A DNA stretch of 60,170 nucleotides from an archaeon (GTDB lineage Archaea > Nanobdellota > Nanobdellia > Pacearchaeales > GW2011-AR1). The stretch is from the NCBI GenBank assembly GCA_043815245.1, contig JBDRJD010000028.1:1-60170 (forward strand). Reading direction: 5' to 3'. Below are positions 24,037 through 33,628 of this stretch, piece after piece (the stretch's first letter is position 1; every line of letters starts with the position of its first letter). The translations under genes and the position numbers were made by a program. The notes under the pieces are model-generated. The model was not told the DNA's origin and searched no databases. It saw only the letters and a list, made by a program, of their open reading frames with translations.

Positions 24037-24558
24037 ATGATGCTATGCCCTTACTGTGGGAAGAAAGAAACAAAAGTTACTGACAAAAGAGATGTTGAGG
24101 GAGTTGTAAGAAGAAGACGTGAATGTTTAAAGTGTAAGAGGAGATTTACAACTTATGAAAGATTTGAACTCAGTAAGTTTTATATTATAAAGAAAGATAA
24201 AAGAAGAGAGACGTATAACCGGGAGAAGTTGTTATCAGGCATGGTTAAGGCTTGTGAAAAAAGGCCTGTAAGCCATGATAAGATTGAGAAGGCTGTTAAT
24301 GAAATTGAAGAAAAGATAAGGAAGAAAAAAGAAGTAAAAAGTGAGATAATAGGTGAAATGGTTATGAATAAGCTAAAGAGGTTGGATAAGGTTGCTTATA
24401 TCCGATTTGCATCAGTTTATAAGGATTTTAAAGATATTGATGACTTTAGAAATGTCGTGAAGGACATTTCTAAGAGCTCTCAAAAATCTAAAGATTTTCG
24501 AAGTTTTGAAAATATGGTAAAAGAGGTCAACCTTTCAAAAAGGTTGCCAAAGAGATAG
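24037..24558 (+). CDS. nrdR: Transcriptional repressor NrdR with C-terminal hairpin-encoded extension
   Basis: CPYC...RRRRECLKC..RFTTYE, ATP cone, LDKVAYIRFASVY. The track's N-terminal extension from 23917 is the repeat element. Confidence 0.93.
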   Translation: MMLCPYCGKKETKVTDKRDVEGVVRRRRECLKCKRRFTTYERFELSKFYIIKKDKRRETYNREKLLSGMVKACEKRPVSHDKIEKAVNEIEEKIRKKKEVKSEIIGEMVMNKLKRLDKVAYIRFASVYKDFKDIDDFRNVVKDISKSSQKSKDFRSFENMVKEVNLSKRLPKR

Positions 24559-24561
24559 AAG

Positions 24562-26907
24562 ATGGTTGAAAGCAGGACAGATAAGGTCATGGAAAAGATT
24601 GAGATTGATGATTTTAGTTTGAAAGATAGAAGCAAGTTGAATTTTTGGCTTTCAATGGTTGAGAAGTACGATTTTGACAAAGTTATTTCTATTTGTTTAA
24701 GGGCTGGAACTACTCCTGAAATTGCAGAGAGAATTGCTAGGGAGATTGATTCTAATTTAGAAGAAGAAGATAAACATGTTGTTCCAATGTCAGAAGTAAG
24801 GCGGTTAATCTTTGCTTTACTATACAAGTATGATTGGGCTGCTGCAAAGAGATTTAGGACAGATGATGTTTTTATTAGAACTAGTTCTGAGAAATTTGAG
24901 GTTTTTGACAGAGCTAAAATCTCTAGAAGCTTGATTAAGGAAACTGAGATTGCTGAAGAGCAGGCAGATGGAATTGCTATGGAAGTTGAGAAGTTTGTAA
25001 AAAACTTGAACCTTACTTATATCTCTTCACCTTTAATAAGGGAGACTGTTAATGTAAAACTACTGGAGTATGGTTTAGAAGATGCTAGGAAAAGGTACAC
25101 GAGAGTAGGTATGCCAATTTATGATGTGGGTGAGATGATTTCTAAAGGGATGGCTACAGATATTAAAAGAGAAAATGCTAATTTACAGCATACTCCAGAG
25201 ACAATTAACTGGATTATATCAGGGGAGACACTAGAACAATATGCGATGATGAAGTTGTTTCCGCAGAACTTAATTGACTCACACCTTTCTGGAGATTATC
25301 ATATCCATATCTTGTCAAATGCAGCTACGCGTCCAAATTGTATTCAACATGTTCCTGCTTTGTTTTTTAAGGATGGATTAAAGGCAGATGGAACTGGAAT
25401 GCACACTTCAATTGCCGGGCCTGCAAAGCATTTATCTGTGGCTATTCAGCATTGTGCTAAGATTCTTTTAGCTTCGCAAACGCAAATGGCGGGGGGGCAG
25501 TCAATTGATTGTTTTAATGTATGGCTTGCTCCTTTTGTAAGGGGGCTAAGTGATGAGGCAGTAAGGCAGGCTGCGCAGGAGTTTATTTATGAGTTAAACC
25601 AGAGTTATGTTGCAAGAGGGGGGCAGGTAGTTTTCAGCAATATTTGTTGGGAGTTTGGAATTCCTGAGTTCTTAAAGAATGTTCCGGCTGTAGGGCCAAA
25701 TGGAAAAATCATGGGGGTTTATGGAGATTATGAAGAAGAAAGTTTGAGGCTGTTAAGAGAGTATACTAAGATGAAGATTAAGGGAGATCATGTGGGAAAG
25801 CAGCATATGTGGCCTAATGATGTTTACAAGATAAGGAAGGAGACTTTTAACAAATATCCTGAAGAAGTAAGATTAGTTCATGAGTTTATGGCTAAGTATG
25901 GAACCCCTTATATTGGGAACGGTATGCCTGAGTGGCAAACTGAGAACTTTAATTACATGGGATGCAGAACTAGACTAGATTCTGCTTATGCAGGGCCGTG
26001 GGGGAGTTTGAGGACAGGAAATGATATTTACATCACTTTGAATCTTCCGAGGCTGGCTTATGAAGCAAAGGGCAATGATACTAAGTTTATGGATCTATTA
26101 GATAGGAGATTAAAGAAGATGGAAGAAATCCTTCTGATAAAGCACAATATTACAGATGATTTGTTGCACAGACAAAACTTGCTAAAGTTTCTAACTCAGA
26201 AATTTGATGGGGAAGAATACTATCAGTTTATGAATACTACTAAATCTTTTGGCTATGCGGGGCTTACAGAGTCAGTTAAATATCATACTGGAAGTCACCT
26301 TCATGAAAGTGAAGATGCTGTGAATTTTGGTGTTAAAGTGATTAAGAGGATGAGAGAGTATGCAAATGACTGCACAAAAGAGCATAAACTAAGATTTTCT
26401 GTAATTGCATCTCCTGCAGAGACTTGTGCTGCGAGACTTGCGAGAATTGATATTGGCAAGTTTGGAAGGTCTGTTATTTTCGCGGGAACTAAAGAAGCGC
26501 CATATTATACAAATAGTCATATGGCCAGGATGGATGCAAATATTCCTTTAGGACATAAGCTGAATATTGAACAAAACTTTCACCCGCTTTCAAATGGAGG
26601 GCATATCACTCATATCTGGCTTGGGGAACAGTCCCCTTCTGTGGACAGTTTAACTGAGATGACTAAAAAAATTTGTAAAAAAGATATTGGGTTTTTTGCT
26701 TATACAAAGGATTATAGTGTCTGCAATGATTGTGCTAGCTTTCAATATGGATTAAAGACCACTTGTAATAATTGTTCTTCAAGTAATTTGAGTAGGTATA
26801 GTAGGATTACAGGATATTACCAGAGAGTGGAAGGGTGGAATGCAAGCAAGAAGCAGGAATTAAAAGATAGATTTAGATATACTTCTGGTAATTGTGCTTG
26901 TGATTAG
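24562..26907 (+). CDS. nrdD: Anaerobic (class III) ribonucleoside-triphosphate reductase
   Basis: ATP cone(s), AGGQS.D.FN, YMGCRT thiyl loop, TLNLPR, YYTNS, CxxC...CxxC, glycyl-radical YSRITGYY. Confidence 0.95.
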   Translation: MVESRTDKVMEKIEIDDFSLKDRSKLNFWLSMVEKYDFDKVISICLRAGTTPEIAERIAREIDSNLEEEDKHVVPMSEVRRLIFALLYKYDWAAAKRFRTDDVFIRTSSEKFEVFDRAKISRSLIKETEIAEEQADGIAMEVEKFVKNLNLTYISSPLIRETVNVKLLEYGLEDARKRYTRVGMPIYDVGEMISKGMATDIKRENANLQHTPETINWIISGETLEQYAMMKLFPQNLIDSHLSGDYHIHILSNAATRPNCIQHVPALFFKDGLKADGTGMHTSIAGPAKHLSVAIQHCAKILLASQTQMAGGQSIDCFNVWLAPFVRGLSDEAVRQAAQEFIYELNQSYVARGGQVVFSNICWEFGIPEFLKNVPAVGPNGKIMGVYGDYEEESLRLLREYTKMKIKGDHVGKQHMWPNDVYKIRKETFNKYPEEVRLVHEFMAKYGTPYIGNGMPEWQTENFNYMGCRTRLDSAYAGPWGSLRTGNDIYITLNLPRLAYEAKGNDTKFMDLLDRRLKKMEEILLIKHNITDDLLHRQNLLKFLTQKFDGEEYYQFMNTTKSFGYAGLTESVKYHTGSHLHESEDAVNFGVKVIKRMREYANDCTKEHKLRFSVIASPAETCAARLARIDIGKFGRSVIFAGTKEAPYYTNSHMARMDANIPLGHKLNIEQNFHPLSNGGHITHIWLGEQSPSVDSLTEMTKKICKKDIGFFAYTKDYSVCNDCASFQYGLKTTCNNCSSSNLSRYSRITGYYQRVEGWNASKKQELKDRFRYTSGNCACD

Positions 26908-27048
26908 TGGGGATAATTTTAAGTATGTAAAAAGATAAATTTTTATTAGAAAGATGGACACCAATATCTTAAGTAATGTTCTTGAAGTATACAAAAAAAG
27001 CAGTTTAAACCTTAATAACCGGAGGAGGTACTATAATCTGATCCAAAC

Positions 27049-27756
27049 ATGGCAGTAAAAGATAATATAAAGGGATTTGTTCCTACGTCGCTAGTTGACT
27101 GGGATGGAAAGGTTTCTGCAGTTATTTTTCTTCCAGGATGTAATTTTAGGTGCAGTTTTTGCAGTAATCCGGATTTAGTTGTAAATACAGATAATATTAA
27201 GACAATTCCCTTTCAGGAAGTTAAAAAAGTTTTAGAAAATAATAATGAATTTATTGATGGGGTGGTAATTACCGGGGGAGAGCCTACAATTTTTTCTGAT
27301 TTTCCAGATTTTTGCCAGAAAATTAAAGAAATGGGGTTTAAAGTGAAGATTGACACAAATGGGACTAATCCCGAGATGTTAAAAGAGTTATTAGATAAAG
27401 AAGTTGTGGATTTTGCTGCAATGGATGTTAAGACTGACTTCGACAAGTATAAAGAAGTTGTAAATGCTGAAGTGGATCTTGAGAAGATAAAAAATTCAAT
27501 AGAATTAATTAAGCAGTTTCCAGAGTATGAATTTAGGATCACTATGTTTCCTAAAATAAGTAAAGAAGATTTAATTAAAGCTGCAGATTATTTAAAAGAA
27601 AAAGGCGCTAAGACTCTGATAATTCAACAGTTTAGAAATGATACTTGCTTGGATAAAGCAGCTGAGGATGTTAAACCTTATTCTGAGGAGCAGTTGAAGG
27701 AAATGAAAGCTGCTGTTGAAACTGGGTTTGAGAAGTGTGTATTGAGAAATGCTTAA
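27049..27756 (+). CDS. nrdG: Class III RNR activating radical SAM enzyme
   Basis: S.VDW.GKV..VIF.PGCNFRCSFC.N, ITGGEP, DTNG, AMDVK. Confidence 0.9.
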   Translation: MAVKDNIKGFVPTSLVDWDGKVSAVIFLPGCNFRCSFCSNPDLVVNTDNIKTIPFQEVKKVLENNNEFIDGVVITGGEPTIFSDFPDFCQKIKEMGFKVKIDTNGTNPEMLKELLDKEVVDFAAMDVKTDFDKYKEVVNAEVDLEKIKNSIELIKQFPEYEFRITMFPKISKEDLIKAADYLKEKGAKTLIIQQFRNDTCLDKAAEDVKPYSEEQLKEMKAAVETGFEKCVLRNA

Positions 27757-27791
27757 ACATTTCTCAGAAAGCATAAAATATATTAATTTTA
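27743..27791. repeat. Two-hairpin element between the convergent nrdG and radical SAM genes (possible terminator)
   Basis: TGAGAAATG-CTTAAA-CATTTCTCA spans the nrdG stop, then linker GAAAGCA, then TAAAAT/ATTTTA. Confidence 0.5.
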
Positions 27792-27805
27792 CAGTCTATA
27801 AATCA

Positions 27806-28903
27806 CTAACATTCAACTAAATTTAAACTAGACTCTCTTTCTAAATAAAGTCTAGCAAGTTTTTCAACTTGAGAAAGATATCTAGGAGAAATATCTTCAA
27901 CTTCTTCAATGGCATAACTGCCTTCTTCAACTCTTGCCCAAACTGGTTTATCAAGCAGTCCGGCAGCTATGTCATGTTCATCCCATGGATGATCTGCAAT
28001 TAGTTCTAATTTTTGCAAAATAGAGTCATAAGGTTCTGTTAAAATGTTTCCAACAAGCTCTCTTTTACTTTCAGAAAACCAGGAGTAAAAAGAAACATCG
28101 CCGTTATTTTCTAGAAATGTATAGGGGTGGTTATGGAAAGGGGGGTCTCTTATTCCTACAAACTGAATTCTAGAATCTTCTTTTTCTAGCATTTTTTCTT
28201 CTGCAAGAAGAAAGTATGCATATAAGCAATCTGAATAACCTTTTTCTGGGTTGCCAGTAGGAGAGATGGCAATTACTTTTTTATATCTTTCAAATAGTTC
28301 TAATTTTTGTTTTTTATTTTTTGCCTTATCAGCTTGTTTTAAAACTCGCATTCTTGCAAGATCATAGTTAAATTCGTAAATTCTCCAGTAATCAAAATCG
28401 GTTTTCTCAAGCTTTTTGAAAAGCTTGGGCATTTCTTTAGAATTTAAGGCAGTGAAAACAGTATGCCAGCCTAGTTGCATTCCATTGTCTTTAATTGCCT
28501 TTGCAAGTTCAGGAAGTTGTTCATAAGTGCTTACAAATTGTCTGCTTCTAAGAGTTTCTTGTATTCCTAGAGTGGTTGAGTCAATTGGAAGTGCAATGTC
28601 GTCTACAAATCTAGCAAGAGTTTCAATTTTTTTGGAAGTTAAAAGAAGTCCGTTAGTGTGATAACTTATTTTGGTTCTGCCTTGGTGAAGAATTTTTAAT
28701 GCAGAATCTAAATCTTTAACTAGAGAAGGATCTCCGCCGCCGATTGTGACTTTTTTTACGCCAGATTCAGCTAGAATCCCGGCCAGTTTTACAAGTTGTT
28801 CTCTGTCTTCTGAAGTCTGCGTGTCAGGCTTAAAGCAATAGATGCAGTTATCATTACAGCGAGAAGTTACAAACCAGTGTATGTGCTGTCCATAGCTTTC
28901 CAT
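27806..28903 (-). CDS. Viperin-like radical SAM protein
   Basis: HWFVTSRCNDNCIYCF, VTIGGGDP, HTNG, ALPIDS, HTV...N, YWRIYEF, YTFLENNG. ATG 28903 is coupled to the dcd stop (TAAAATG). Confidence 0.7.
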   Translation of the reverse strand: MESYGQHIHWFVTSRCNDNCIYCFKPDTQTSEDREQLVKLAGILAESGVKKVTIGGGDPSLVKDLDSALKILHQGRTKISYHTNGLLLTSKKIETLARFVDDIALPIDSTTLGIQETLRSRQFVSTYEQLPELAKAIKDNGMQLGWHTVFTALNSKEMPKLFKKLEKTDFDYWRIYEFNYDLARMRVLKQADKAKNKKQKLELFERYKKVIAISPTGNPEKGYSDCLYAYFLLAEEKMLEKEDSRIQFVGIRDPPFHNHPYTFLENNGDVSFYSWFSESKRELVGNILTEPYDSILQKLELIADHPWDEHDIAAGLLDKPVWARVEEGSYAIEEVEDISPRYLSQVEKLARLYLERESSLNLVEC

Positions 28904-28904
28904 T

Positions 28905-30848
28905 TTAACTAGATGGAGGGGCGAGCCAGGAAATTTGATCAAGGGGAAGAGTTCTCTCAATAGTCCCAGGCATATCTCCAATATCGTGGTATTCGGAAGA
29001 TTTAGTTGCAGCGTAAATTGCATCAAGTTGAGGAATTAAAGTACGAGTCCAGGTTTCAACATTATACTCCGAATCTTTTAAAACTCCCCTTAACTTGTTC
29101 AGAGACATCATTTCCCACCAAGCAATTGAATCTTCTCTTGGAGTAATCTTACCATTAACATGTATTGCATAAATCAGACCAAAGTGCACTCTATCTACGG
29201 GTTGATCTCGTATGAACATTGTTCCGTATAAGTGCGGTCGAGTTACCTGGCCTGAAACTCTAACTTCTTCTTCAAGAACTTCTCTTCTGATATTGTTTAA
29301 GACAAAGTTAGGCTGTTCTGTATCTCTACTTCTGTCTTCAATTCTTATATGCCCCCCAAGAGCTATTGAAAACTTATCAAATAGCCTTTTATCTCCATAT
29401 AGTTTGTAGTCTTTTGCTCTTACATAGGAAAAAACCTTCTTGTCTTGATCAAACATTACTACATATGGGATTACCTGCAGGACGGACTCATCATCTTCAC
29501 AGTCATATCTTGAGTGGAAAAAAGGATTGCCTTCTATTAGTTCCAGAAGTCTTGGAAGAGTTTCTGGGTGCACTGGTTCAAGACCTTCAGGATAAGTTCT
29601 TAAATCATGGAATTTTTTTGCATCTTCAACTAAGACAATTCTGGAGAGGGCGTCTACATTTTTTCCAGCAATATCGAAGTCAAGTCCTTGGAAATATTTT
29701 GCTGTTTTAGGGCCTTTTTGAAATTGATAGTGGGAGCCTACTTCTCCGTAAACTTTGTCTGGAGTGGTAGTCCTAAATAGAACAATGTCACTTATCGCCA
29801 TGCCGTCATCGATTTCTGCATCTTGTGTGGGTATAATCTCAAAAACTAGATCACCTATAAATCCAGGGTCTATAAATCCTGCAAAATGTAATCTTCCCCT
29901 AAGACCTACGTCTGCATGTGCCCTAAGTACTGCGTTTAAGTGAGGGGGGATATTAAGTACTTCTTTAGAAGCAATAAGGTAGTGCTCCCCTTCTTTAAAG
30001 GTTAGCTTTCCCTCTAAATCAGATTTGAGCGGTTCAAAATAATCTTCTGCTCTACGCGCAAACTTTGCACCAAGATCTACTGGTTCAGGATTTTGTCTTG
30101 CTCTTAGTGCGCACACTCCTTTGGTGTATTGCCCTAAAGTGTCAAGATGTAGCTGAACTGCTGATTCCTCGGTGAGTCTTGGTGAGTTAATAGGTAGTGC
30201 TGCCCACCCCATTTCAGGAGTTGCTTCCCAGAGTAATGGAGTTGATTCATTTTCTTTTAAAATTTCTTTGCTTGTTAACATAGAATCAATTCCTTGATAG
30301 AATCTTAGCTGGTTTAATGCGAGTCCTGGACGGATGATATGATTAAATGCAAGAGGTTGAAGTAAAAGCCAGAGTTGCAAGTGTTCTGAGTTAGGGCCTG
30401 GCTCTGAAATCTCGTCATAACAGCCTTGGTAATCTGCAAGTAACCTTGTATCAAGAAAAACTCTTCCTGTAGAGCTTTTGGGAGATGATTTTACTAGCTT
30501 AATTTGAGGGCCTAGTTGTATTCTTTCTTCTAAAGGGGCAAGGTAGGTAAACCCTTTTTTTATTTCATACCCCTCAGAAATATCAACTTGTTCTCTTCTT
30601 TTTTTAGGCAACTCGAGAAGAGATCTCCATACTGTTTTTCCTTTCTCCGGTTTCCAAAGGCCTTCTTCTGGGTCTAGACGGTAAATTGTGTCTCCTATTA
30701 TAGGGTCACAGGAAGCTGGCTGAATACGCGTGTCGGAGATTAGGGAGGGTTTAGTCCTAGTTGCTTCTGAAGATGGAATCTGCAAAACTCCGGATTCAAT
30801 TAGTCCTCTAATTTCTTGATAAGCTAAGCAAGATCCCCTTTCTGTCAT
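28905..30848 (-). CDS. dcd: Long-form (two-domain) dCTP deaminase fused to a COG4112/YmaB-like NUDIX hydrolase
   Basis: IQPAS.D, PKSSTGR, HFAGFIDPGF, GSHYQ.Q; C-terminal R...E.D...LQVIPY, S+ALGGHI, RE..EE, VHFG.IY, ETW. Confidence 0.82.
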   Translation of the reverse strand: MTERGSCLAYQEIRGLIESGVLQIPSSEATRTKPSLISDTRIQPASCDPIIGDTIYRLDPEEGLWKPEKGKTVWRSLLELPKKRREQVDISEGYEIKKGFTYLAPLEERIQLGPQIKLVKSSPKSSTGRVFLDTRLLADYQGCYDEISEPGPNSEHLQLWLLLQPLAFNHIIRPGLALNQLRFYQGIDSMLTSKEILKENESTPLLWEATPEMGWAALPINSPRLTEESAVQLHLDTLGQYTKGVCALRARQNPEPVDLGAKFARRAEDYFEPLKSDLEGKLTFKEGEHYLIASKEVLNIPPHLNAVLRAHADVGLRGRLHFAGFIDPGFIGDLVFEIIPTQDAEIDDGMAISDIVLFRTTTPDKVYGEVGSHYQFQKGPKTAKYFQGLDFDIAGKNVDALSRIVLVEDAKKFHDLRTYPEGLEPVHPETLPRLLELIEGNPFFHSRYDCEDDESVLQVIPYVVMFDQDKKVFSYVRAKDYKLYGDKRLFDKFSIALGGHIRIEDRSRDTEQPNFVLNNIRREVLEEEVRVSGQVTRPHLYGTMFIRDQPVDRVHFGLIYAIHVNGKITPREDSIAWWEMMSLNKLRGVLKDSEYNVETWTRTLIPQLDAIYAATKSSEYHDIGDMPGTIERTLPLDQISWLAPPSS

Positions 30849-30901
30849 TTTTTAGAGAGCATTTTAGTTTTTTAAATGATTATGATAGTGGAATATAGAG
30901 A

Positions 30902-31522
30902 TTACAAGGATAGTCTTTGCTTTGCTTCGTATCTTATTCTATCCTGCATTCCATCAATATCTCCGTGGGCATAAGGAAGGACAAAAAAAATATCTGAGTT
31001 TAATTCTGCAATTTCTCTGTATCCTTTACAAACTCTCTGATGAAATTCAATTGCTTCGCTTTCAAATCTGTCTGCACCTGCGTTTTTTAATCCAACTTCA
31101 GGATCAAGGTCTATAAGAATTGCTAAATCAGGGCGCATTCCAAAAGTTACTTTTTCATTTAGGGTGCGGATATAATTTAGATCCATGCCCCTTCCATAAC
31201 CTTGATAAGCTTCAGAAGCGTATCTTCCTCTATCTTGGAGGATAATTCTTCCAGCGTTTCGAGCCGGTATAATGAGGCCTGCATAAATGTCTGCTCTTGC
31301 AGCTTCAAACAAGAGTAATTCTGCTAGGGGATCATGGAGTTCTGTTTCAGGAGATAATAGTATTCGTCTTATTGCTTCTCCAGCAGATGTTGCTCCGGGT
31401 TCTCTTGCTGTAAGGGGATTATAACCTTTCTCTCTTAACCATTCTTCAAATAAACTAATCTGAGTAGTTTTGCCGCAGCCCTCGCCGCCTTCAAACATAA
31501 TTAGCTTGCCTTTTTCTGACAT
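30902..31522 (-). CDS. tmk: Thymidylate (dTMP) kinase
   Basis: FEGGEGCGKTTQ, REPG, LLFEAAR, DR...S..AYQGYGRG, PDL. Confidence 0.92.
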   Translation of the reverse strand: MSEKGKLIMFEGGEGCGKTTQISLFEEWLREKGYNPLTAREPGATSAGEAIRRILLSPETELHDPLAELLLFEAARADIYAGLIIPARNAGRIILQDRGRYASEAYQGYGRGMDLNYIRTLNEKVTFGMRPDLAILIDLDPEVGLKNAGADRFESEAIEFHQRVCKGYREIAELNSDIFFVLPYAHGDIDGMQDRIRYEAKQRLSL

Positions 31523-31531
31523 TTTAGAAAA

Positions 31532-32704
31532 TTAAACTACTCTTGTTAGACCATTTGCTGGCCCCCAAACACAAGGAGAATCACAGCCTGTAGATTCAAT
31601 CTTGCACCTTGAAGTTGCGTTTGCAGCAATTTCTGGGCGAACTGATCCATACATTTCAGCAACAGCTTGGGTATTTTTCATTATTTCGTATTGAGCATGC
31701 CCGCAAAGGCGTTGGCGCATTTTTGAAATGTAATGCCTTGGAGTTCCGGTTTCATTTACTTTTAAAAACTGAGCTTGGGGAAAATCAGAGGTTGCAACTT
31801 CTTCTAAGTCTCCAGTCCACTCTCGAACTAGAGATCTATCCGGAAGTATAATTCCTGGAATAAAGAAACCAAGAGGAGCTCCTGGCTGATGTCCTCCAGA
31901 GATATGATAATCAATAGTTCTATGACGGTGAGCTTGTGCAAGTCCTGCAAAGCTCATTAGGTAATTAATTGCATAGGTATCTGCAAAATGCGGTGCAACT
32001 GTATGGGGTTGAAATAAACTGAGATGATGCTCTATTTTACTTGTTAAGTCAGCTTCTCTAAATTTTGCAATATCCTCTTGAGCAATAAATGCCTCAAAAC
32101 AATCTGCAAGCCTTGAAAACATTGGATTTCCGGACTGCCTATATTCTGGAATTAGAGCTTCCATTTCGTGAGCGATAAAATTAAGTTGTCTTAAGCTGAG
32201 AGTGTGAGTCATTTTTGTTGGAGTGAAAACAGAAGTCATGTAACGCGCGTTTTCTTGAACTAACTTTTTAATTGCAACTTGTCTATCTTCTGAATTACCC
32301 ATTGCAGGATAGACTGCACCAATTAAAGGAGTTAGCCGGTCCATCCACTTGTCATAAAGTGCATTTTGAACTGGCTCAATATCCTCCATTCTAGTATACC
32401 TAGCTGATTTTTCTGAAGTAGCCATGTCTTGCTCGTTATTAAGGACCATTGCCATAATCTTTGGGAGGCCTTGCATGTAAAAGCTAAGAGTTGTGTGTTC
32501 AAACGGGCTATGATGCCCAGATGTAAGTAAGCGGTCCATTAGAGCTGCTTTATCTTGCTCATTTTGCACGACTACAAAGTCTTTATCAGTATAACAGACT
32601 CTTGCATTATCTCTTCCAAATTTCAACATTGGTTCAAGATTTCTCCAGCCTTCTGTTGCCCCTATTAACTCAATTCTCATGGCTGCACCATCTTTTTCTG
32701 CCAT
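31532..32704 (-). CDS. thyX: Flavin-dependent thymidylate synthase, tandem ThyX domains
   Basis: GHHSPFEH, SEKSARY, Q.NARY..., second-domain AQAHRHR. ATG 32704 lies 23 nt below the TATA at 32728-33. Confidence 0.8.
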   Translation of the reverse strand: MAEKDGAAMRIELIGATEGWRNLEPMLKFGRDNARVCYTDKDFVVVQNEQDKAALMDRLLTSGHHSPFEHTTLSFYMQGLPKIMAMVLNNEQDMATSEKSARYTRMEDIEPVQNALYDKWMDRLTPLIGAVYPAMGNSEDRQVAIKKLVQENARYMTSVFTPTKMTHTLSLRQLNFIAHEMEALIPEYRQSGNPMFSRLADCFEAFIAQEDIAKFREADLTSKIEHHLSLFQPHTVAPHFADTYAINYLMSFAGLAQAHRHRTIDYHISGGHQPGAPLGFFIPGIILPDRSLVREWTGDLEEVATSDFPQAQFLKVNETGTPRHYISKMRQRLCGHAQYEIMKNTQAVAEMYGSVRPEIAANATSRCKIESTGCDSPCVWGPANGLTRVV

Positions 32705-32844
32705 ACTCAAATCCAGGATCAGAACTTTATAAAGAAGGTTGCAACAGAAAGTATATTTTGAAAAATACTATTGAGAAATAGTTAAGTTTAAATAAGACTT
32801 CAGGATAGTTTTGATATGCAAGAATTGAAGAGGTGTGAAGGAAA

Positions 32845-33177
32845 ATGGCAGAGGCAAAGAACGGAGTTGAAGAAATCACTGGGAATAATATTGAAGAGAA
32901 GTTGGGAAAACCTCTCGTAGTTCTAGATTTTTTTGCTGAGTGGTGTATGCCTTGTCTTATGATGGCTCCTGTTGTTGAAGAGCTACATGATAAGCTAAAG
33001 GGGAAGGTAACTTTTTTTAAGGTGAATATTGATGATCATCAGGACCTTGCTAGAAAGTTCAAAGTTGCTTCTATTCCTACATTAATAATTTTTAGTAAGG
33101 GTGTGGAAAAAGAGAGGATTGTAGGCAGTATACCTGCTGATGCAATTGAAGATAAAATTACGAGTTTTTTAAGCTAA
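32845..33177 (+). CDS. trxA: Thioredoxin (WCMPC variant)
   Basis: DFFAEWCMPC, VNID, SIPTL; GAGGTG SD. Confidence 0.88.
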   Translation: MAEAKNGVEEITGNNIEEKLGKPLVVLDFFAEWCMPCLMMAPVVEELHDKLKGKVTFFKVNIDDHQDLARKFKVASIPTLIIFSKGVEKERIVGSIPADAIEDKITSFLS

Positions 33178-33178
33178 G

Positions 33179-33628
33179 ATGGGAACAGGCTCTGGAAATG
33201 TGGATGTTGATGAAACAACTGAAATTATGAGGCGAGCTTTTAAAGTAAAGCCGGTTTTACAAGACTTAAGAGCTAGGCTTACTGAAGTAGTTTCTAAGCT
33301 AAATAAAAAAAGGCCGTTGAGAGAGAGATTACATAGAAGAACTTACGACTTGGAGACAGATGACGGAAATTTTTTAATTATCCGATCTGCACCCTTGCCT
33401 TATGGACCTGCAGCAGCATGGGGCTATAGGAAGGATCCAAAAACAGTAGCAAAAATTAATGTAGTGGAAAAACTAGAATCTGGAGATAAACTGCCTTCGC
33501 TAAGTTTAGAGGGGTATATTGAAGGGGGTTGGTGGGGTGCAGAAAGGATTGGGAGGGTGGTTAGTTATTTGCATGAAAAGCATAATATTCCAATTGGTGA
33601 TCTGGCAGAATATCTTCTTAGAGGATAG
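33179..33628 (+). CDS. Hypothetical protein
   Basis: 149-aa ORF abutting the trxA stop. Confidence 0.5.
   Translation: MGTGSGNVDVDETTEIMRRAFKVKPVLQDLRARLTEVVSKLNKKRPLRERLHRRTYDLETDDGNFLIIRSAPLPYGPAAAWGYRKDPKTVAKINVVEKLESGDKLPSLSLEGYIEGGWWGAERIGRVVSYLHEKHNIPIGDLAEYLLRG

Follow-up and report, generated by a model that had tools for sequence, protein, structure and literature searches.

A rare radical SAM gene with a viperin-like core beside the deoxynucleotide genes of a DPANN archaeon

The subject of this analysis was a block of four minus-strand genes (positions 27806-32704) on the archaeal contig JBDRJD010000028.1 (assembly GCA_043815245.1; lineage Pacearchaeales), which was analyzed over its whole length of 60,170 nt and is referred to below as the window. 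The block consists of a long thyX-like gene, tmk, a dcd::Nudix fusion, and a gene encoding a radical S-adenosylmethionine (SAM) protein. The best explanation, to which a probability of about 55% was assigned, is that the region represents one version of a deoxynucleotide island that occurs in related DPANN archaea between nrdR and the thioredoxin, rpoH, and rpoB genes, and that the radical SAM gene is an accessory gene in this island rather than a conserved member of the pathway. The radical SAM gene belongs to a rare stand-alone family that is not conserved in the deoxythymidine triphosphate (dTTP) pathway, and its position at the end of the dTTP operon would be that of an accessory gene settled in a variable slot. 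An earlier, sequence-only reading had instead treated the four genes as a single system for nucleotide chemistry, ending in a translationally coupled viperin-like enzyme.

Neighborhoods and rarity of the radical SAM gene

To survey the genomic surroundings of the radical SAM family, 46 loci with a homologue, together 368 kb and with flanks of up to 6-8 kb, were drawn from assemblies, species genomes, and JGI metagenomes. None of the 46 loci had a tblastn match to thyX, tmk, dcd, the Nudix domain, nrdR, nrdD, or thioredoxin, and the only "NrdG" matches in them were the radical SAM genes themselves. All-against-all BLAST comparison of the neighboring open reading frames (ORFs) revealed no family present in more than four loci; the most repeated one, a TatD-like hydrolase, occurred in four and was the sole recurrence, and the existence of a conserved partner gene was rejected on this basis. 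Since nucleotide genes were found in 0 of 46 loci and no partner recurred, the gene stands alone wherever else it is present. The survey had been named beforehand as the genomic half of a possible refutation of the sequence-only reading, and it found no linkage to nucleotide genes elsewhere. With no neighbor family in more than four loci and with related islands that lack the gene, the place proposed for the radical SAM enzyme as the fourth member of a nucleotide-chemistry system was not upheld.

The neighbors themselves were of general character. A Pfam scan of two genes on each side of the homologues (140 proteins) revealed methyltransferases, MCM, TatD, eRF1, TBP, and NAC, and a PADLOC scan of the same 140 neighbors gave only generic methyltransferase, TatD, and helicase matches with no enrichment, leaving a defense-island context unsupported. 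Nucleotide linkage of the nearest sequence neighbors in related genomes was also rejected, none of nine such loci lying near dcd, tmk, thyX, or nrdR; several of these nine were clusters of multiple radical SAM genes. Matches in Desulfobacterales were heme-pathway enzymes adjoining hemB, and long multi-domain matches in the representative search were set aside as uninformative, being tandem radical SAM/SPASM fusions with additive scores. The radical SAM genes found near nrdR in 60 relatives were only short ORFs of 230-270 aa, which by size and position are presumed to encode NrdG.

The family is rare at every scale that was searched. A word-indexed search of 5.8 billion proteins yielded 31 clusters, all at 36-47% identity and some of them named Nanoarchaeota or Aenigmarchaeota, and a profile search of 1.84 billion representatives yielded 93 proteins at E < 1e-30. 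No member was found in the 40 closest relatives; across the phylum, 5 of 400 genomes sampled (about 1%) contained one, only some of them full length. Full-length members (38-40% identity) were present in two species-representative metagenome-assembled genomes (MAGs) labeled Patescibacteria and Saccharibacteria, at loci L042 (DATKVM010000007.1) and L043 (CAYPSR010000048.1); their assignment to the candidate phyla radiation (CPR) is that of the MAG labels. The family thus seems to be common to ultra-small archaea and ultra-small bacteria. At L042, the neighbors of the radical SAM gene were ABC transporter, RNase HII-like, and uracil-DNA-glycosylase-like genes. The IMG/VR scan gave no homologues and only generic core matches, and BFVD gave only generic radical SAM proteins; a phage origin was rejected accordingly. 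A literature search on DPANN and viperin returned only general surveys of archaeal defense, and no paper on this radical SAM family was found.

The interval between nrdR and thioredoxin in related archaea

The nrdR gene was present in 49 of the 61 genomes searched, this one included, and the deoxynucleotide genes associated with it differed widely in kind and order. The most direct comparison was with genome G001 of the same genus (RpoB 86% identical), whose collinearity with the window runs from 15.3 kb through nrdR, breaks off there, and resumes at thioredoxin (L200, G001:C9, 11069-17290, compared with positions 24490-32820 of the window). In G001, the genes between nrdR and thioredoxin encoded a reductase of 870 aa (Ribonuc_red_lgC), a ThyA-like protein of 384 aa (weak match), a ParB-CE domain protein, a HAD hydrolase, and a dCMP deaminase; an ORF of 156 aa in the same interval had no match in Pfam. 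Since G001 is collinear outside this interval and wholly different within it, the interval is a slot in which the deoxynucleotide gene set is exchanged wholesale. Other arrangements were found in more distant genomes. The 134-kb metagenome contig L122, which carries the closest homologue of the dcd fusion (49% identity), had the order rpoB-rpoH-...-trx-thyX / tmk-dcd::Nudix / dCMP deaminase-ribonucleotide reductase (RNR)-nrdR; a 556-aa Thy1 protein is encoded in this island. Genome G017 had thyX-tmk-nrdR-nrdD-nrdG-(kinase::dCMP deaminase)-dUTPase-trx, and genome G015 had nrdD-IS-nrdG-thyX-tmk-(kinase::dCMP deaminase), where IS is an insertion sequence, namely an IS1595-family transposase (DDE_Tnp_IS1595; L038, G015:C15, 8453-9217) lying between nrdD and nrdG. 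In G013, dcd::Nudix adjoined trx and rpoB, and G016 carried a further variant of the island. The radical SAM gene was absent from the five related islands examined. The operon is of a known kind and widely shared, and the proposed four-gene unit is not conserved. The dTTP/RNR island is conserved yet freely reshuffled in these archaea, to the point that two species of one genus have non-orthologous sets between nrdR and thioredoxin.

The route by which these enzymes would supply dTTP can be outlined as follows. The class III reductase NrdD/NrdG would lead to deoxycytidine triphosphate (dCTP), the Dcd domain would deaminate dCTP to deoxyuridine triphosphate (dUTP), and the fused Nudix domain and/or a separate dUTPase encoded elsewhere in the genome would convert the latter to deoxyuridine monophosphate (dUMP). 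The long ThyX would then methylate dUMP to deoxythymidine monophosphate (dTMP), which Tmk would phosphorylate to the diphosphate (dTDP). A flux from dCTP to dTDP through these enzymes is predicted, and the proposal of this route for thyX, tmk, and dcd::Nudix was supported, the same genes recurring together beside RNR, nrdR, and thioredoxin in other DPANN archaea and the fusion occurring in more than 200 protein clusters. The arrangement resembles the ThyX-Tmk pyrimidine operons and NrdR-controlled RNR islands of bacteria and archaea, with the same enzymes and the same logic; it differs from them in that ThyX here is a 390-aa, apparently internally duplicated protein and in that the content of the island is swapped wholesale even within one genus.

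The alternative that the four genes form one system, in which the radical SAM enzyme converts a pyrimidine (deoxy)nucleotide from Dcd::Nudix, ThyX, and Tmk into a modified or antiviral nucleotide, has to be weighed against these comparisons. It draws on the common strand and the 1-nt gap that join the radical SAM gene to the dcd fusion, on the lack of a strong TATA box immediately 5' of the radical SAM gene as read from the sequence, on the dedication of the remainder of the nrdR-to-trx slot to nucleotide metabolism, and on the viperins as nearest relatives, some of which adjoin Tmk/CMPK2-type kinases (10.1101/2023.09.13.557418). However, not one of the 46 homologue loci has these nucleotide genes, five related islands do without the radical SAM gene, and across the family Gly and Tyr stand where viperin has the triphosphate-binding Lys220 and Arg245. 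The 1-nt gap also carries little information. In a simple ORF call of the 921-kb assembly (893 genome ORFs, 569 same-strand neighbor pairs), gaps of 1 nt or less separated 182 of the 569 same-strand pairs (32%), and gaps of 10 nt or less separated 41%; because a third of such pairs have gaps this short, the gap before the radical SAM gene is ordinary for this genome and does not support describing the gene as translationally coupled. Taken together, the four-gene alternative was judged quite improbable.

Composition gave no further indication of a separate history. In guanine-cytosine (GC) content, GC content at third codon positions (GC3), codon score, and lysine content, all four genes lay within 1.5 standard deviations of the genome mean (893 ORFs). 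A recent foreign import of the block was rejected, since this native composition gives no sign of recent import, nor does it indicate a separate shared origin for the four genes; the comparison of the block with the genome, which had been proposed as a check, thus returned no import signal.

Viperin-like core and altered substrate pocket of the radical SAM family

Sequence profiles place the radical SAM family closest to viperins. The 365-aa protein matched Pfam Radical_SAM at 63.5 bits, and its best NCBIfam match was the viperin family NF038283 (70.6 bits, with the next family at 54); the cut-off of this family is 180 bits, and only residues 8-175 were matched. In a profile search of the PDB with the family profile, the viperin-like enzymes of T. 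virens scored 69.8 bits versus 53-56 bits for SkfB and MoaA. The prokaryotic viperin (pVip) models of PADLOC matched at 78-80 bits, but only from position 5 to 174 of the 262 in the profile. P0120, used as a control, was matched almost end to end (1-256 of 257 positions, 171 bits). The nearest single-domain sequence neighbors of the family, P0120 among them, were proteins of about 280 aa with a whole-length pVip match, to which hhalign aligned the family with a probability of 100% over 270 columns, the C-terminal Y-x-F...G-N-I segment included. The protein matches only the N-terminal two-thirds of the pVip profile, and it failed the viperin membership tests, with 70.6 bits against 180, a partial profile match, and replaced pocket residues. 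The earlier label "viperin-like" is sound for the radical SAM core only. The closeness to viperins still makes a nucleotide-like substrate plausible.

The shared features are considerable. As in viperin and pVip (NF038283, PDB 6q2p and 9dfn), the family has a single CxxxCxxC cluster motif in a partial TIM-barrel ((beta-alpha)6) core, the strand motifs GGEP, xTNG, (L/S)xDS, and xW(K/R)xF/Y in the same order, an Arg at the position of Lys247, and an invariant Tyr at the conserved Tyr of the pVip-like outgroup; it is likewise a stand-alone gene of patchy distribution. An alignment of 25 sequences revealed the conserved motifs HIHWY-T-RCN--C-YCF, GGEP, HTNG, LPIDS, LR, GYHTVFTALN, DYWRIYEFN, PEKGYTDCL, IQFVG-RD, and PYAFLDN-G-V--Y-WFS---RR-IGNI, together with an acidic C-terminal helix region. 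The residues C16, C20, and C23 were invariant and were the only positions with Cys in at least 20 of the 25 sequences; since only these three Cys are conserved, the family is assigned from its sequences a single [4Fe-4S] cluster and no auxiliary-cluster cysteines. The AlphaFold model of the protein (pLDDT, the predicted local distance difference test, 89.1) contained six beta-alpha units. Unlike viperin and pVip, which are of about 280-300 aa, the protein has 365 aa; it also differs in a two-helix insert of 55 residues that follows strand 6 (approximately residues 180-235) and in a tail, likewise helical, of about 55 residues (approximately 310-365). The family is thus a small, well-defined, uncharacterized enzyme family with a confident structure model, which is now delimited for biochemical work.

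Two other radical SAM groups were considered and rejected as assignments. MoaA (GTP 3',8-cyclase) scored far below the cut-offs (TIGR02668 52.8 versus 325 bits and TIGR02666 48.4 versus 284 bits), and the protein lacks C-terminal Cys; the NrdG activase model TIGR02495 scored 29.9 bits versus a cut-off of 131. A SPASM/twitch maturase was rejected as well (cluster Cys at 16, 20, and 23 only, no auxiliary-cluster Cys, and no Pfam SPASM match). This last group bears on the broader alternative that the enzyme acts on a macromolecule or cofactor, by modification of RNA, protein, or peptide, and is unrelated to free nucleotides. In the Foldseek search, the top matches of the model were viperins (TM-score, the template modeling score, 0.70-0.79, target-normalized), but peptide-modifying SPASM enzymes (SuiB, anSME, SkfB, and CteB) had nearly equal E-values; the C-terminal Y-x-F-L-D-N-x-G-x-V...G-N-I segment is similar to the hairpin of SPASM/twitch enzymes, and the neighbors are information-processing genes. 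Against this stand the three conserved cluster Cys, so that there is no auxiliary cluster, the lack of a recurring small precursor-peptide gene or other partner, a preference of the sequence profiles for viperin by about 15 bits, and a rarity far too great for a core RNA modification. Action on a macromolecule is therefore regarded as unlikely.

The substrate pocket was compared with that of mouse viperin (6q2p), in which the basic and polar residues Asn77, His79, Lys120, Arg194, Lys220, Asn222, Arg245, and Lys247 bind the nucleoside triphosphate. With the mouse numbering mapped through chained profile alignments and the counts taken from the 25-sequence alignment, Asn77 corresponded to His9 (24/25) and His79 to Tyr or Phe, Lys220 to Gly145 (22/25) and Asn222 to His147 (25/25), and Arg245 to Tyr172 (25/25) and Lys247 to Arg174 (24/25). 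Lys120 was kept as Lys51 in only 17 of the 25 sequences, and Arg194 probably corresponds to Arg119 (23/25), with a shift of one column. As far as the alignments indicate, the basic triphosphate pocket of viperin is largely lost, with Asn77 changed to His, His79 to Phe/Tyr, Lys220 to Gly, Asn222 to His, and Arg245 to Tyr setting the family apart from viperin and pVip. The most likely mechanism proposed is cleavage of SAM at the single [4Fe-4S] cluster and hydrogen abstraction from a small substrate that resembles ribose or a nucleotide; the invariant Tyr261 would be the probable donor of hydrogen or an electron. The remodeled pocket (His9, His82, and His147, with Lys replaced by Gly145 and Arg by Tyr172) argues that this substrate would not be the nucleoside triphosphate of canonical viperins. 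In the pVip-like outgroup, the residue aligned with Tyr261 is Tyr235, itself nearly invariant. Tyr302 of mouse viperin is the conserved C-terminal Tyr proposed as hydrogen or electron donor in that enzyme.

These features bear on whether the gene might be a stand-alone antiviral, namely a divergent member of the prokaryotic viperins that by itself produces a chain-terminating 3'-deoxy-3',4'-didehydro (ddh) nucleotide and is located here only since variable slots collect accessory genes. Such a role would fit the rare and patchy distribution (about 1% of the phylum genomes) and the presence across domains in two CPR-labeled MAGs, the occurrence as a single gene without partners, as in most pVips, the finding that the PADLOC pVip models were the sole defense matches (78-80 bits), and the invariant Tyr aligned with the conserved Tyr of the pVip-like outgroup. 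It is at variance with the score of 70.6 bits, far under the curated viperin cut-off of 180, with a pVip match limited to positions 5-174 of 262, with the loss of most of the basic triphosphate pocket, with neighbors that are housekeeping genes with no defense enrichment, and with the lack of homologues in IMG/VR. An antiviral role of this kind is an improbable explanation. A related possibility is that the gene represents a new viperin-type branch with a rebuilt pocket, which makes an undescribed nucleotide derivative (starting, for instance, from a pyrimidine nucleotide in deoxy or mono/diphosphate form) and was recruited to the end of an operon producing dCTP/dUTP for co-expression with its substrate supply. 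This is rather improbable; if true, it would mean a single-gene nucleotide-based antiviral or DNA-precursor-modifying function in ultra-small symbionts. More generally, if the family acts on nucleotides, viperin-type chemistry would be wider than described, and its use by ultra-small symbiotic archaea and bacteria would become clearer.

Compared with these alternatives, the assignment of the radical SAM gene as an accessory gene in a variable deoxynucleotide island is preferred, and the following points weigh against it. The slot otherwise contains almost only deoxynucleotide genes, and the radical SAM gene begins 1 nt after dcd::Nudix on the same strand, so that a lineage-specific functional tie of the gene to the slot is possible. 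The correspondence of pocket residues passes through chained alignments, and Tyr261 may be the equivalent of viperin Tyr302, a match drawn from motif similarity by way of the same chain of profiles. With respect to the nucleotide pathway, another contig of the genome encodes a stand-alone dUTPase (G000:C6:9086-9469), so that the Nudix domain would not be strictly needed for dUTP hydrolysis and its role in that step is a predicted one.

Nucleotide enzymes and layout of the cluster

The long thyX-like gene (390 aa; 31532-32704, minus strand) starts with an ATG at 32704 and encodes a protein that matched Pfam Thy1 at 71.7 bits (cut-off 24.8) over residues 36-178, with a second Thy1 stretch at residues 301-357; the match to TIGR02170 (56.8 bits) was below the cut-off of 87.9. 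In the alignment with T. maritima ThyX, the first repeat has NEQ at the position of RHR and retains SxxSxRY, HRHR occurs about 170 residues further on in an apparent second, partial repeat, and the C-terminal R...HAQYEI segment is retained. By these motifs the protein is apparently internally duplicated. Orthologues of this long thyX (40-52% identity) were found in 4 of 40 relatives, or in 5 of 41 genomes counting this one, with tmk directly downstream in three of the four; in G007 there was no tmk within the 10 kb read. The complete dcd::Nudix fusion was found in 2 of the 41 genomes searched. With these two frequencies, the description of the lineage as usually short of nucleotide synthesis appears fair. 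The tmk gene for thymidylate kinase (30902-31522, minus strand) follows thyX after a gap of 9 nt, and its product exceeded the cut-off of TIGR00041 (134 versus 83.25 bits) and matched Pfam Thymidylate_kin at 119 bits.

The dcd::Nudix fusion (647 aa; 28905-30848, minus strand) lies 53 nt after tmk. Its Dcd part (residues 1 to about 390) is, by Pfam gathering scores, a long-form dCTP deaminase (PF06559/PF22569/PF22769), with DCD, DCD_N, and DCD_C matches of 90.4, 80.2, and 69.3 bits, all above the Pfam cut-offs; the NCBIfam equivalog NF005734 matched at 152 bits, short of its cut-off of 283. The Nudix part gave no Pfam match even at E <= 10. Its AlphaFold model (residues 388-647, from an alignment of 20 homologues; pLDDT 85.6) matched TM1382 (PDB 3e57) in Foldseek with a TM-score of 0.85 and a root-mean-square deviation of 2.9 A, and the other named matches among the best 50 were all Nudix-fold proteins, isopentenyl pyrophosphate isomerases included. 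The Nudix box (GX5EX7REUXEEXGU) was present with an insert of about 10 residues (GGHIRIE, 17 residues, REVLEEEV), and R135, E136, E140, and E141 were invariant in the 20 homologues. The model thus supports a Nudix fold for the C-terminal, COG4112-type domain of the fusion (approximately 430-620), which bears out the NUDIX assignment made from the sequence.

Fusions of this type were found in more than 200 protein clusters of Nanoarchaeota, Woesearchaeota, and Pacearchaeota, and JGI names some of the homologues "dCTP deaminase/predicted NUDIX family phosphoesterase". Two homologues, P0181 and P0188 (765 and 764 aa), were three-domain fusions with an added nucleoside-diphosphate kinase domain (PF00334). 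For the G013 orthologue (L036, G013:C18, 1773-3623), one in-frame TAA was reported by the search, yet the ORF call reads a 616-aa open frame; the TAA could be a frameshift or assembly issue. The bifunctional dCTP deaminase-dUTPase of Methanocaldococcus jannaschii and Mycobacterium tuberculosis carries dCTP to dUMP on one polypeptide, and Dcd::Nudix would likewise do so, feeding thymidylate synthase. In contrast to that enzyme, the second step here is predicted for a separate fused Nudix domain rather than for the Dcd active site, and the Dcd part is of the long two-domain form (PF06559/PF22569). Among the 41 genomes, which include incomplete MAGs, a dUTPase was found in one of the seven with this Nudix type, free or fused, versus 20 of the 34 others (Fisher p = 0.045); this weak tendency to exclusion would fit a Nudix domain able to replace dUTPase. 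YmaB, a COG4112 Nudix protein of the B. subtilis nrdI-nrdE-nrdF-ymaB operon, has been reported on a preliminary basis to have deoxynucleoside triphosphate pyrophosphohydrolase activity (PMC5960316). The Nudix part resembles TM1382 in fold (TM-score 0.85 to 3e57) and YmaB in being encoded with ribonucleotide reductase genes; it differs from both in its fusion to Dcd, in the insert of about 10 residues in the box, and in lacking a Pfam NUDIX match.

The radical SAM gene (27806-28903, minus strand) follows after a 1-nt gap: the dcd fusion ends with ...CCA TCT AGT TAA, whose TAA occupies 28907-28905, and a single base separates it from the radical SAM start codon, an ATG at 28903. The gene is probably co-transcribed with dcd::Nudix. 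A palindromic TATA-like box, TTTATAAA (32726-32733, minus strand), lies 29 nt 5' of the thyX ATG; a scan for this pattern gave 26 matches in the window versus 30 expected, so that the motif by itself is not significant and is suggestive only through its position. A possible internal TATA-like box, TTTAAAAAA (30868-30876, minus strand), lies inside the 53-nt gap, 28 nt 5' of the dcd ATG, and this spacing matches that of TTTATAAA to thyX (28 and 29 nt). Because a second box precedes dcd at the spacing of the thyX box, the cluster may comprise two transcription units, thyX-tmk and dcd::Nudix-radical SAM, rather than one. The proposal of four co-oriented genes under one TATA box therefore stands as to the ORFs and the gaps of 9, 53, and 1 nt, but the single promoter is in doubt.

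On the opposite side, the class III ribonucleotide reductase operon nrdR-nrdD-nrdG (24040-27756, plus strand) is convergent on the cluster, as had been proposed, and the end of nrdG is separated from the radical SAM stop by 49 nt. The operon comprises the nrdR Zn-ribbon (24040-24159), nrdD (24562-26907), and an nrdG candidate (27049-27756), a radical SAM ORF of 235 aa directly 3' of nrdD, all on the plus strand. The other flank consists of thioredoxin and then rpoH and rpoB. The thioredoxin gene (32845-33177, plus strand; Pfam Thioredoxin 91.3 bits) is the conserved right-hand border of the nucleotide island and is collinear with its counterpart in the same-genus genome G001. Thioredoxin and the next ORF, of 149 aa and with no Pfam family, are likewise 1 nt apart (33177-33179).

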